Assembly: GCA_041753515.1 (NCBI GenBank)
Contig: JBGSUE010000056.1
Coordinates: 1 to 62,060 of the forward strand
Source of the DNA: Patescibacteria group bacterium
GTDB taxonomy: Bacteria; Patescibacteriota; Microgenomatia; UBA10105; UBA927
Direction: 5' to 3'
Length of the DNA: 62,060 bases
Positions 39,589 through 42,385 of the stretch are shown in pieces. The stretch's first letter is position 1; each line of letters starts with the position of its first letter. Under the pieces are notes generated by a model, which worked only from the letters and a program-made list of their open reading frames with translations, did not search any database and had not been told where the DNA came from. Position numbers and translations under genes: made by a program.

Positions 39589-41337
39589 TTAGGTTTTTTT
39601 AGCAATCGTATCCATTATAAATGTTAAAAACTCATCGGTTTTCATGTTCTGTGTTTTGCCGTCCCTTGAACGGATGCTCAGCGTTCCCGATTCTACTTCC
39701 TTATCACCGATAATGATCATATAAGGTATTTTTTCATGCTGGGCATCGCGGATTTTGGCCGGCAAGGTTTCACTTCTCAAATCCACCTCACTTCGTATTC
39801 CTGCCTGAATATAGCCGGCATGCAATTGTAGTACATATGCATGGTGTCTGTCGGCAATCGGCAGAATTTTCACCTGGACAGGTGAAAGCCATACCGGAAA
39901 AACCCCTTTATATTTCTCAATGAGAAATGCCATAGTCCGTTCAAATGCGCCTATTGATGACCGGTGAATGACAATTGGCTCCTGTTCTTCTCCTTTTTCG
40001 TTCGTATACGTAAGATGGAATCTTTTCGGCATGACAAAATCATACTGGTCGGTGAATGCCGTTTCTTCGTGTCCCAGCGCATTTTTTACCTGGATATCGA
40101 TTTTTGGTCCATAAAATGCCGCTTCATTTTCTGCTTCATAATACGGAGCATCGCGGTCGATGAGTACCTGTCTGAGTACTTTTTCGGCATGATCCCAGGA
40201 CGCATCATCTTTAAAATACTTTTTCGTATCCGCGCGGTCTCCAAGCGACAGTCTGTACCGATAATCTATTCCCTTTTTCATCCCGAGTGTGTCGTTGATG
40301 AATTCGATAAGATCCAGTACCCTGTTTATTTCTTCGACCGCCTGATGTTTCATGCAGATGATGTGCGCATCTGCCAGGCAGAACATCCGAACCCGCATAA
40401 GCCCCGTCAGTTCTCCGCTTTTTTCATAGCGGAACAGGTCGGCACACTCAGCATACCGGATAGGCAGTTCGCGGTATGAGTGAGGTCGGGATGCATAGAG
40501 CTGGAAATGGTGCGGGCATGTCATTGGCCGCAGAATGAGCTCTTCTTCATCAACGTTCATCGGCGGATACATTGTGTCTTTGTAGTATGGATAGTGTCCG
40601 CTGGTCCTATAGAGATCCACTTTGGCTAGAGGTGGCGTCATGACATGCTCATACCCGCGTTTTATTTCCTCATCCACGACAAACCGTTCCAGTTCCCGCC
40701 GTATGGCAGTTCCTTTAGCTGTGAGCATTGGAAGTCCTTTTCCCACAAGATCCGTGAATACAAATAACCCCAGATCGCGGCCCAGTGTCCGGTGGTCGTT
40801 GGTTTTTGCTTCTTCACGTCTTGTCAGATACTCTTCGAGTTCATTTTTTGTGGGAAAACAGGTGCCGTAAATGCGTGTAAGCATTTTATTTTTTTCATTC
40901 CCCCGCCAGTATGCACCCGCGACTGATAATAGTTTGAAGTGTTTCAGATCTTTGGCTGGATTCTCTGTATGGCCTCCGCGGCACAAATCGCTAAACAGTC
41001 CTGCCGTATACAGCGTGAGCCCGTCATTGGCATATTCTTCAATGAGCTCTCTTTTATACGGATTATCTTTATATAATTCCAGTGCTTCACCTTTGGAAAG
41101 TTCCCTGCGTTCAAACGATTTCCAGTTTTTAACAAGATCATGCATCGTTTTTTCAATTTTTTCAAAATCAGCATCGGAAATTTTTACATTCCCGAAATCG
41201 AAATCGTAATAAAACCCGTCTTCGATTGCAGGCCCTATTGCCGGTTTTGCTTCCGGCCAAAGCTTTAAAACCGCTGCCGCCAACAGATGCGCACACGAAT
41301 GCCGCATATTGCTTAAGTATTCTTCATTTTTATCCAT
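39589..41337 (-). CDS. thrS: Threonine--tRNA ligase (no N-terminal TGS domain)
   Basis: RHSCAHLLA, DLCRGGH, GAYWRG, DHR, RPMTCPHH, AAFYGPKID, IHR; GAGGAG SD. Confidence 0.96.
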   Translation of the reverse strand: MDKNEEYLSNMRHSCAHLLAAAVLKLWPEAKPAIGPAIEDGFYYDFDFGNVKISDADFEKIEKTMHDLVKNWKSFERRELSKGEALELYKDNPYKRELIEEYANDGLTLYTAGLFSDLCRGGHTENPAKDLKHFKLLSVAGAYWRGNEKNKMLTRIYGTCFPTKNELEEYLTRREEAKTNDHRTLGRDLGLFVFTDLVGKGLPMLTAKGTAIRRELERFVVDEEIKRGYEHVMTPPLAKVDLYRTSGHYPYYKDTMYPPMNVDEEELILRPMTCPHHFQLYASRPHSYRELPIRYAECADLFRYEKSGELTGLMRVRMFCLADAHIICMKHQAVEEINRVLDLIEFINDTLGMKKGIDYRYRLSLGDRADTKKYFKDDASWDHAEKVLRQVLIDRDAPYYEAENEAAFYGPKIDIQVKNALGHEETAFTDQYDFVMPKRFHLTYTNEKGEEQEPIVIHRSSIGAFERTMAFLIEKYKGVFPVWLSPVQVKILPIADRHHAYVLQLHAGYIQAGIRSEVDLRSETLPAKIRDAQHEKIPYMIIIGDKEVESGTLSIRSRDGKTQNMKTDEFLTFIMDTIAKKT

Positions 41338-41339
41338 AT

Positions 41340-41480
41340 ATCCTCCTCATAAAAAAGAGCCACTTCTGTTGGATCGCCCACTGGGCGAGGTTCCATCCAA
41401 CTTTTGTGACTTAATTTTTCTTTTTTCGCCAAGATCGCGCTTTCCTTTGAGATTGGTGAAGTCTCATGCTATCGGAAAGT
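41340..41480 (-). ncRNA. Compact T-box riboswitch leader (Thr)
   Basis: Antiterminator GTTGGA-TGGAACC-TCGCCC-AGT-GGGCGA-TCCAAC (41401-41368) with the UGGNACC bulge; short 5' hairpin with ACC in its loop (41479-41440); upstream of thrS. Confidence 0.8.
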
Positions 41481-41486
41481 ACTAAC

Positions 41487-41515
41487 AGTATATGACATCA
41501 TGATGATTTTGTCGA
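41487..41515 (-). promoter_or_regulatory. sigma70 promoter of the thrS leader
   Basis: TCGACA-17 bp-TATACT; predicted TSS near 41480. Confidence 0.65.
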
Positions 41516-42385
41516 GGTGTCAATGGACCAGAGGGGGGTCAGGTGGTGGGATTGTTTTGATTTAAAAATCCGGGTGTAGAGCCAGATGACGAAATAACTG
41601 AGGACAGAAAACGGATGACTGAATAATTCAGACAGTACCGCATGAAAAATAATTCCCAACGGTATGGAGTATTCCTGTTTCAGGTTTTTATGAAACAATG
41701 TCTCCATTTCATCGCGCGATGTCTGGTAGCGGCTCGAAGGACCGATCTGGTCGGCGAGTTTTTCCGGAGGCTTGATATACACCGCCTCGGTTTGCAGTTT
41801 CCTAAATATTCCACCAATCCGCTTGTGTTCAAAATACAGATACGCATCACCGTTGAGGACCGTATCAGGAATTGTCATGTGTTTTAAAAAATTTGTTTTG
41901 AATGCAAGACACCGGCCGCTCGCTGACAGGTAATTATCCCCATTTCTCCAGGCAGTGTTGATGCGGTCGATACTTCGGATCATAAAACCAAGTGCATTGC
42001 CGAATGGTGTTGTTGAGGCAAGCGGCAGGATCGGGATACCGAGCATTGTAAGACTATTGAATTTCTGAAATTCTTCGACGATTTTTTTGAGAAGTCCGGG
42101 AGAGAAAACCACATCGTCCTGGGTAAAAATAAAAATATCACTCAGTGAGCATCTGATGATCTGGTTGAGTTTTTTGAACTGGCTGCCTTCATGCTCATTC
42201 CAGATAATTTCCACATTCTGTTTTTCAAGAGCAGTGCGTATTGTGCGGGAAATAGGTGTGCGGTCCGCCGAAACGATGATACGGCAGGGATAGTGCTGCA
42301 ACCGTATCGAATCTACGGCAGAGACAAGTGACGTGCCGCTCCAGCAGGTGGGAATTCCCACGGTGATTGTCGGGGAGTGTTTCAT
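41498..42385 (-). CDS. GT2 glycosyltransferase
   Basis: ITVGIP, FTQDD (DxD-like), SGRCLAF, GDAYL. Confidence 0.8.
   Translation of the reverse strand: MKHSPTITVGIPTCWSGTSLVSAVDSIRLQHYPCRIIVSADRTPISRTIRTALEKQNVEIIWNEHEGSQFKKLNQIIRCSLSDIFIFTQDDVVFSPGLLKKIVEEFQKFNSLTMLGIPILPLASTTPFGNALGFMIRSIDRINTAWRNGDNYLSASGRCLAFKTNFLKHMTIPDTVLNGDAYLYFEHKRIGGIFRKLQTEAVYIKPPEKLADQIGPSSRYQTSRDEMETLFHKNLKQEYSIPLGIIFHAVLSELFSHPFSVLSYFVIWLYTRIFKSKQSHHLTPLWSIDTSTKSS

Follow-up and report, generated by a model that had tools for sequence, protein, structure and literature searches.

Control of thrS, the gene encoding threonyl-tRNA synthetase (ThrRS), from within its own leader is known from Escherichia coli, where ThrRS regulates its own production by binding an operator that mimics the anticodon arm of tRNA-Thr. 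Here we analysed another thrS leader, located on the minus strand at positions 41515-41338 of contig JBGSUE010000056.1 (assembly GCA_041753515.1, Patescibacteria group bacterium); all 62,060 nucleotides (nt) of this stretch are referred to as the window. As in E. coli, control of thrS would be exerted through the leader, but in this case the loop in question presents a codon (ACC, or ACU and ACG in relatives) and is combined with a bulge that should bind the tRNA 3' end. To judge from its sequence and from that of its relatives, this leader is a genuine, conserved, threonine-specific T-box of reduced architecture. We consider it rather probable that it controls thrS by transcription attenuation, with a terminator that competes for the RAG motif and the position of Stem III.

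The rules currently applied to T-boxes were derived from Firmicutes and Actinobacteria, and a review links transcriptional control to a long Stem I which binds the tRNA elbow (PMC7583486). The canonical class I T-box (Rfam family RF00230, e.g. tyrS and thrS of Bacillus subtilis) shares with the window leader the logic of a specifier combined with a UGGN bulge, as well as an F-box-like GCGUAA after Stem IIA, the position of the RAG motif and a terminator with a U-tract. However, the window leader measures only about 130 nt from Stem I to the U-tract, while the RF00230 model has 219 positions. It is devoid of the long Stem I, the basal kink-turn (K-turn), the internal specifier loop and the elbow-binding distal bulge and loop, and its terminator encloses the antiterminator, whereas the class I terminator excludes it. 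The minimal transcriptional T-boxes of glycine glyQS genes have attenuation, the lack of Stem II and a G+C-rich codon-anticodon pairing (GGC:GCC there, ACC:GGU here) in common with our leader. On the other hand, according to the same review, they possess a long Stem I with a K-turn and an elbow-binding distal motif, they have a hairpin Stem III and no IIA/B pseudoknot (the reverse is true of the window leader), and their terminator competes with the 3' halves of helices A1 and A2, which is not the case here (PMC7583486).

The actinobacterial ileS T-boxes (Mycobacterium tuberculosis, Nocardia farcinica; "class II", translational) resemble the window leader in their short Stem I with the specifier in the terminal loop and in the lack of an elbow-binding distal motif. 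They also have the same IIA/B pseudoknot, a short linker, a RAG motif before the discriminator and a 7-nt UGGNACC bulge between A1 and A2. In contrast to them, the window leader contains neither Stem II with its S-turn nor a hairpin Stem III, its output device would be a U-tract terminator rather than a sequestrator of the Shine-Dalgarno (SD) sequence, the gene is thrS, and the lineage belongs to the candidate phyla radiation (CPR)/Patescibacteria. Part of this comparison is based on the review mentioned above (PMC7583486).

All the sequence elements that a sequence-only reading of this region had named are indeed present, on the minus strand, to which all leader positions given below refer. 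A sigma-70-like promoter, TCGACA-17-TATACT (41487..41515, 10/12 match), with its -35 element at 41515-41510, a 17-nt spacer and its -10 element at 41492-41487, places the predicted transcription start at about 41481. The 40-nt Stem I (41440..41479) consists of a lower helix (CUUUCC, 41479-41474, paired with GGAAAG, 41445-41440), an asymmetric internal loop (GAUAGCA, 41473-41467, facing AA), an upper helix (UGAGA, 41466-41462, paired with UCUCA, 41452-41448) and a 9-nt apical loop, CUUCACCAA (41461-41453), in which the specifier ACC (threonine, 41455..41457) is followed by A. It folds as described with -7.7 kcal/mol (z -2.1). Then comes the Stem IIA hairpin CGC-GAUCUUG-GCG (41427..41439), whose loop segment UCUU (41434-41431) finds its pseudoknot partner in the IIB strand AAGA (41419..41422). 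An A-rich linker ends with the RAG motif AAG (41410..41412), placed where the canonical RAG motif stands, just 5' of Stem III; its A and G are shared with a strand that we call X (AGUCAC, 41406..41411).

The bulged hairpin (41401-41368) is composed of the 5' strand of helix A1 (GUUGGA, 41396..41401, paired with 41373-41368), the T-box bulge UGGAACC (41389..41395), the helix A2 hairpin UCGCCC-AGU-GGGCGA (41374..41388) and the 3' strand of A1 (UCCAAC, 41368..41373). It is followed by AGAA, strand X' (GUGGCU, 41358..41363), a single C and a tract of six U residues (41351..41356). The SD sequence GAGGAGG (41342..41348) is located beyond the conserved structure, and the thrS ATG begins at 41337. 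The whole leader has a length of about 144 nt, and its 3' domain folds with -23 kcal/mol (z -3.4), a value equalled by 1 of 200 shuffled sequences. The thrS gene itself (39589..41337, minus strand) encodes a protein of 582 amino acids with the Pfam domains tRNA_SAD, tRNA-synt_2b and HGTP_anticodon. Among sequencing runs, none of RNA was listed for positions 41000-41800, and of three listed DNA runs of a single study, two cover this stretch in part or in full.

A search of 41 related genomes revealed ThrRS homologues in 40. The nearest ThrRS loci are those of Levybacteria, Woesebacteria, Gottesmanbacteria, Microgenomates and "Patescibacteria group" metagenome-assembled genomes, in agreement with the earlier guess of a CPR-like lineage. 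Among the 26 loci whose ThrRS match reached the N-terminus, 19 have a bulged hairpin with TGGNACC in the 350 nt upstream, and in two loci (L019 and L021; numbers with L are our locus handles) the leader is present farther upstream than that. A covariance model, R1, was built from an alignment of 17 relatives' thrS leaders (135 positions, 32 pairs). Run on the 1.34-Mb genome from which the window comes, R1 gave a single match, which is the window leader (129 bits, E 2e-26), and 39 matches at E<=1 were obtained in 96 loci. Of 151 genomes sampled from the class, 34 were positive, each with a single match, among them 7/7 from the same family. A sample of 151 genomes from the phylum contained 12 with a match, the window's own genome and one more of its class being counted. 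Aligning the 48 R1 matches with E<1e-6 gave 47 distinct leaders, on which the counts given below are based unless another number is stated. Forty-six of them are located upstream of thrS on the same strand, while the remaining one lies at a contig end. The idea of a distinct, highly reduced threonine T-box in a CPR-like lineage is thus supported by a whole family of homologous leaders.

The specifier of these leaders is ACC in 42, ACU in 3 and ACG in 2 cases, so that only its wobble base varies. An A stands next to it in 47/47, and a threonine codon followed by A therefore occurs in every distinct leader. The bulge reads UGGAACC in 43/47 leaders, and the other four are single-base variants. 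A tRNA-Thr(GGU) gene was found in the genome, and all three tRNA-Thr genes carry U73 and do not encode CCA; as U73 pairs with the A of UGGA, this part of the bulge matches the U73-CCA end of tRNA-Thr. In total, ARAGORN detected 30 tRNA genes in this genome of 57 contigs.

The structure of the leader is under selection. In the alignment of the family, 81.8% of cells are paired, compared to 56.8% in shuffled alignments, and none of 500 shuffles reached any of the observed measures; slid controls gave 32-51%. The lower helix of Stem I is paired in 94.6% of cells and its upper helix in 88.5%, with covariation in 6/6 and 5/5 pairs, respectively. Similar results were obtained for IIA (95.5%, 3/3 pairs), A1 (92.2%, 6/6 pairs) and A2 (91.8%, 6/6 pairs), and every single pair of these helices changes on both sides. 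Covariation across the thrS leaders of relatives, proposed as a check in the sequence-only reading, is therefore present in Stem I, IIA, A1 and A2. It extends to the suggested UCUU/AAGA pseudoknot: the IIA loop pairs with the next 13 nt by at least 4 bp in 43/47 leaders and by at least 5 bp in 28/47, while shuffled or swapped partners reach 5 bp in 15%, and about 35 different IIA-loop sequences each match their own downstream partner. Some lineages have extra hairpins, added on the 5' side of the internal loop of Stem I (L005, L022, L035, L122) or in the IIA loop (L018, L133, L140), which means that both these loops tolerate insertions.

The long Stem I, Stem II and Stem III are missing, as had been noticed before. 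A promoter with at least a 9/12 match was found within 70 nt upstream in 39 of the 46 leaders with enough flanking sequence, and its -10 element ends 4-20 nt (30 nt in one case) before the start of the R1 model, which is itself placed 2 nt before Stem I. As conserved promoters adjoin Stem I in this way, the transcript starts at Stem I and no long Stem I is hidden upstream. The spacing between Stem I and IIA, 0-2 nt in the aligned leaders, leaves no place for Stem II or an S-turn. Likewise, in the window only 8 nt, with no local hairpin, separate the AAG from A1, and therefore a hairpin Stem III is absent. When the Stem I internal loop was checked by eye against the general consensus of a K-turn, no register was found to fit the covariation.

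The bulged hairpin had been proposed to act as an antiterminator simply preceding the U-tract. This part of the sequence-only reading has to be revised, as AGUCAC (41411-41406) pairs with GUGGCU (41363-41358), and the bulged hairpin is thus contained in the only hairpin adjacent to the U-tract of the window. Two designs of the terminator can be distinguished in the family. In type (i), represented by L131, L132, L134 and L137, the terminator is canonical, its 5' strand being the 3' half of A2 and A1. In type (ii), to which the window and most other leaders belong, the terminator encloses an intact A1/A2 hairpin: when the 3' domain is folded, A1 and A2 persist in the minimum free energy (MFE) structure and are enclosed by a further helix of at least 5 bp in 41/47 leaders. 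Consequently, the terminator is mutually exclusive with A1/A2 in L131, L132, L134 and L137, but not in the window leader or in these 41.

The columns of X and X' are misaligned in the family alignment (24.7% paired), and this helix was examined by separate scripts instead. A helix of at least 6 bp between linker and tail was found in 33 of 42 leaders, with 8.3 expected from shuffles; the tail before the U-run showed no enriched pairing with A1, the bulge or A2 in these 42 leaders. The mean energy of the linker-tail duplex was -9.7 kcal/mol for cognate, -7.0 for non-cognate and -5.2 for shuffled tails, where the non-cognate swap is a weak control because two types of X dominate. The sequence variants of X and X' stay complementary to each other, as in GUCACC/GGUGAC, GAUCACC/GGUGAUU, GCCGCC/GGUGGC, UACCGUU/AACGGU, UACCCGC/GCGGGUA, GAUCC/GGGUC and CCACAC/GUGUGG. 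A U-run of at least 4 residues directly follows the helix in 46/47 leaders, an arrangement which favours transcription termination as the output.

As the triplet before X, 37 leaders have AAG and 8 have GAG (RAG in 45/47), and in the MFE folds of 33/47 leaders the G of this motif is paired into the terminator stem, as is G41410 with C41359 in the window. Counted by us on the sequences, IIB and A1 are about 15-23 nt apart in either type, and therefore X lies in a spacer which is single-stranded in type (i). One more leader upstream of thrS, from another class (L145), looks like a bridge form between the two platforms. In its predicted folds, a local 4-bp Stem III is formed together with A1/A2 before X' is made, and once X' is made, a long helix of the RAG motif and the Stem III 5' strand with X' takes over.

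Other roles of X and X' were considered and rejected. X often reads ACC or ACA followed by a purine and might be taken for a second threonine specifier, but its third base does not track that of the specifier in ACG and ACU leaders, and X contains GCC or CCC in L124, L127 and L140. Pairing of X' with the T-box bulge, as seen in two other leaders of the same genome (on contigs C49 and C30, see below), finds no complementarity in the window and occurs at 5 bp or more in 0/42 leaders, and pairing of X' with the A1 or A2 strands is not above shuffles. X/X' as a circularly permuted Stem III in the tRNA-bound state is contradicted by the RAG motif preceding X, a 5'-strand position, which means the opposite orientation. 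A separate observation is that X and the specifier loop look alike, and that X' (often GGUGA) can pair with the specifier loop (UCACC) by at least 5 bp in 15/42 leaders, compared to 4.7 from shuffles; the segments compared in the window are 41363-41358 and 41461-41453.

Leaders of this design are missed by the existing T-box model. A match of the 3' part alone to the Rfam T-box family had been expected, but the window contains no such match at the gathering score. In the region 41250-41750, Rfam returned two chance matches only at E<=10, RF00230 not being one of them, and a scan of positions 1-62060 gave no tRNA gene and no Rfam family at the gathering score in the 62 kb. On the 1.34-Mb genome, RF00230 gave two weak matches on other contigs (22 and 20 bits). 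Of 15 relatives' leaders, 0/15 reached the gathering score (93 bits), the best value being 29.4 bits; the weak scores came only from type (i) (L131, 29.4 bits, and L134, 22.3 bits), and all 11 type (ii) leaders tested gave no match at E<=1. As described in its publication, TBDB was built from RF00230 together with a class II model run on Actinobacteria and on RF00230-detected leaders with truncated Stem I (PMC7778990). Because RF00230 misses the leaders described here, and because of this search scope of TBDB, regulation of aminoacyl-tRNA synthetases in CPR genomes is under-annotated. In the literature searched, which did not extend to subscription journals, no report of T-boxes in the CPR, Patescibacteria or Saccharibacteria was found, and among the matches listed for metagenomic T-box and Stem I literature (titles and beginnings of abstracts) none concerned the CPR.

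Taken together, the leader is most likely a transcription attenuator with a rewired terminator, for which we propose the following switching mechanism. The transcript would begin at the foot of Stem I, whose apical loop would offer ACC-A to the anticodon of tRNA-Thr(GGU). The IIA/B pseudoknot would follow without Stem II, and then the short linker, the RAG motif and the A1-UGGAACC-A2 element, in which UGGA would pair with the U73-CCA end of tRNA-Thr in its uncharged form. The terminator would take its 5' strand not from the 3' halves of A1 and A2, but from the RAG motif and the next 4-6 nt (X), in place of Stem III. Its 3' strand would be X', just before the U-tract, so that the stem would wrap the intact A1/A2 hairpin. 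In the ON state, uncharged tRNA would bridge the specifier and the bulge, the RAG motif would dock on the pocket made by the tRNA end and the bulge, and with the linker held in this way X would be unable to pair with X', allowing RNA polymerase to read through. In the OFF state, with tRNA absent or charged, the RAG motif and X would be free to zip with X', and transcription would stop 13 nt before the thrS start codon. The docking of the RAG motif and its pairing, together with X, to X' would be mutually exclusive.

We infer tRNA binding, the direction of regulation and the competition between RAG docking and X pairing. The proposed mutual exclusion agrees with the IIB-to-A1 spacing and with the bridge form L145 described above. 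By a rough estimate from the dimensions of a tRNA, about 9 nt of linker also seem too short to span the way to the far end of the X/X'-A1 stack when the tRNA is held at both its anticodon and its 3' end. In the sister leaders of type (i), as far as their sequences tell, the decoding domain common to both types serves an ON-type switch. For the ileS complex of M. tuberculosis it is described (PMC11297988, section 13) that the R of the RAG motif touches the terminal A of the tRNA as well as the U that opens the bulge, that the A of the motif is stacked inside the bulge ACC and the G binds the last bulge C, and that RAG mutants lose induction. In its full form our proposal describes a transcriptional T-box of about 130 nt which reads tRNA-Thr by an apical-loop codon, a pseudoknot, the RAG motif and the bulged A1/A2 hairpin only, and whose terminator competes for a tertiary latch (the RAG motif and the strand in the Stem III position) and leaves the antiterminator helices intact. 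We put this forward tentatively, as a possibility somewhat short of an even chance; if true, a switch by competition for a tertiary latch would represent a new principle.

A number of points weigh against this proposal. In the OFF state A1, the bulge and A2 would be intact, so there is no obvious competition of helix against helix, and we found no precedent for such an OFF state in the literature searched. Simple stabilisation of the hairpin by tRNA would in turn predict more termination, not less. The argument of RAG docking is an analogy, taken over from an ileS structure of Actinobacteria in which Stem III is present as a hairpin. As stated in the review, T-boxes with truncated Stem I need Stem II for tRNA binding, the antiterminator alone without Stem III does not bind tRNA, and transcriptional T-boxes generally need a long Stem I (PMC7583486). 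With no Stem II, no Stem III and no long Stem I, our leader is thus devoid of three things thought to be required. Nor is there conservation of the basal G-U wobble of A2, which in solved structures acts as the main aminoacyl sensor: the basal A2 pair is GC in 16, UA in 14, AU in 6, UG in 6 and CG in 5 leaders, and U-A in the window. Furthermore, leaders of the ACCGUU subtype do not keep the A-rich stretch on the 3' side of X, and the absence of any RF00230 hit on the window leader also belongs here.

It might be assumed that the T-box is mainly translational, i.e. that tRNA binding frees the SD sequence as in the actinobacterial ileS leaders with ultrashort Stem I, and that the U-tract is incidental. 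The review presents an ultrashort Stem I as a typical trait of translational T-boxes (PMC7583486), and in several relatives the start codon is located 0-8 nt after the U-tract, with an SD-like X' (AGGUGA, GGUGG) that would be buried in the X/X' helix, making a translational component plausible there. The CUCUUU/GAGGAG helix, which the sequence-only reading had proposed to hide the SD, can indeed form in the window. However, this hairpin is weak (-5.1 kcal/mol, with 33/200 shuffles equally good) and falls outside the conserved part of the leaders, and the SD of the window lies outside every conserved helix, beyond the terminator. Moreover, the spacing between U-tract and start codon varies among relatives, with values of about 0 up to more than 500 nt, while the helix and the U-run are kept in 46/47 leaders. 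We therefore regard a mainly translational output as unlikely. In the relatives in which the thrS start follows the U-tract by 0-8 nt (L124, L127, L128, L126, L074, L119, L024), X' (AGGUGG/AGGUGA) is the only SD-like sequence, and X presumably resembles the 3' end of 16S rRNA. In such leaders the X/X' helix, by the look of its sequence, could both terminate transcription and hide the SD.

Another explanation, partly canonical, is a slip of register, in which the 3' strand of A1, beginning with UCCA in the GUUGGA/UCCAAC leaders, slides onto the UGGA of the bulge. Without tRNA the bulge would then be occupied by the leader itself and the hairpin would become a smoother terminator, and tRNA would act by displacing the slip. 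The tandem UGGA of GUUGGA-UGGA makes such a slip feasible, and by our own tally the MFE fold of 24/47 leaders engages one or more of the four UGGN bases in pairing, in several cases via the slipped register. Nevertheless, the MFE fold of the window leader leaves the bulge open, the UUGCGN subtype cannot slip and has the same overall design, and a slip would not remove the X/X' helix beside the U-tract. Thus, a register slip seems to be a distinctly unlikely basis of the switch. Considered on its own, the tandem UGGA of the window lies within GUUGGA-UGGAACC (41401-41389), and the A1 3' strand starts with UCCA (41373-41370), i.e. with the letters of the tRNA-Thr 3' end. A1 slips so that UCCA covers the bulge in the MFE folds of many relatives, which could reflect either self-inhibition or mere ancestry.

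One could also imagine that the logic is inverted or decayed, that the bulged hairpin merely tops a terminator which is constitutive or stabilised by tRNA, and that uncharged tRNA does not induce thrS. Such a view would account for the structural compatibility of the antiterminator-like element with the terminator and for the absence of Stem II, the hairpin Stem III and the A2 G-U sensor alike. On the other hand, strict conservation of the specifier, the RAG motif and the bulge across the class and beyond argues for a working tRNA sensor, and sister leaders with the same decoding domain have canonical platforms of the ON type. It would also make little physiological sense to shut off thrS when tRNA-Thr is uncharged. 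This possibility appears quite improbable to us. Finally, chance resemblance, i.e. an ordinary promoter with an attenuator, or the terminator of the family-2 glycosyltransferase gene (41498-42385) which is separated from thrS (39589-41337) by an intergenic gap of 160 nt, would agree with Rfam finding no T-box, but is hardly credible in view of the E value of the family model (2e-26), the covariation of all helices, the occurrence of threonine codons only, the linkage to thrS in 46/47 leaders and the position of the promoter between the upstream gene and Stem I.

A motif scan combined with folding, translations and Pfam revealed three more T-box-like leaders in the same genome, each with a codon in its apical loop. 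The first one (C49:7255-7457, plus strand; L001:1455-1657) has the loop CAUCCAA (UCC, serine) and the bulge UGGCACC and precedes a His_Phos_1 gene, whose product may be a phosphoserine phosphatase. The 3' strand of its terminator, GGUGUC followed by U7, pairs with the bulge itself, and A2 is kept. In the second one (C30:9879-10135, minus strand; L002:1467-1723), with the loop AUAUCA (AUC, isoleucine) and the bulge UGGUACC, the terminator 3' strand GGUGCCA followed by U6 pairs with all 7 bases of the bulge; the gene downstream encodes a class I synthetase of 997 amino acids and is probably ileS. The third one (C47:330-650, minus strand), with the loop UGAUUGGG (UGG, tryptophan) and the bulge UGGCACC, has a canonical competing terminator and is located upstream of an open reading frame that was named TrpRS-like by eye.

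The family described here thus represents CPR leaders without an elbow-binding Stem I, Stem II and Stem III, in which the specifier, the pseudoknot, the RAG motif and the bulge are under clear selection. If it works as proposed, the window leader would be the smallest natural tRNA-sensing attenuator and a switch in which the terminator attacks a tertiary latch and not a helix, and structural studies as well as engineered tRNA sensors might benefit from so compact a scaffold. Along with the bulge-pairing terminators found in the ileS-like and serine leaders, it would make the CPR, if this is true, a reservoir of alternative T-box expression platforms.

Two further observations concern relatives of the window leader. 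In three of them, an additional conserved structured element of about 90-130 nt (GAUGG...CCAUCAAUCC and hairpins) is present between the T-box terminator and the thrS start, at approximate positions L008:1403-1500, L005:1385-1490 and L011:1361-1500; the elements of L008 and L011, which were scanned, gave no Rfam match at E<=1. In other classes of the phylum, weaker R1 matches were obtained in L147, L148 and L152, with the bulge UGGUACC and the enclosing-helix design, but with other sequences of X and X' (e.g. CCACAC/GUGUGG) and no thrS in the locus. These leaders may represent the same platform serving other amino acids.

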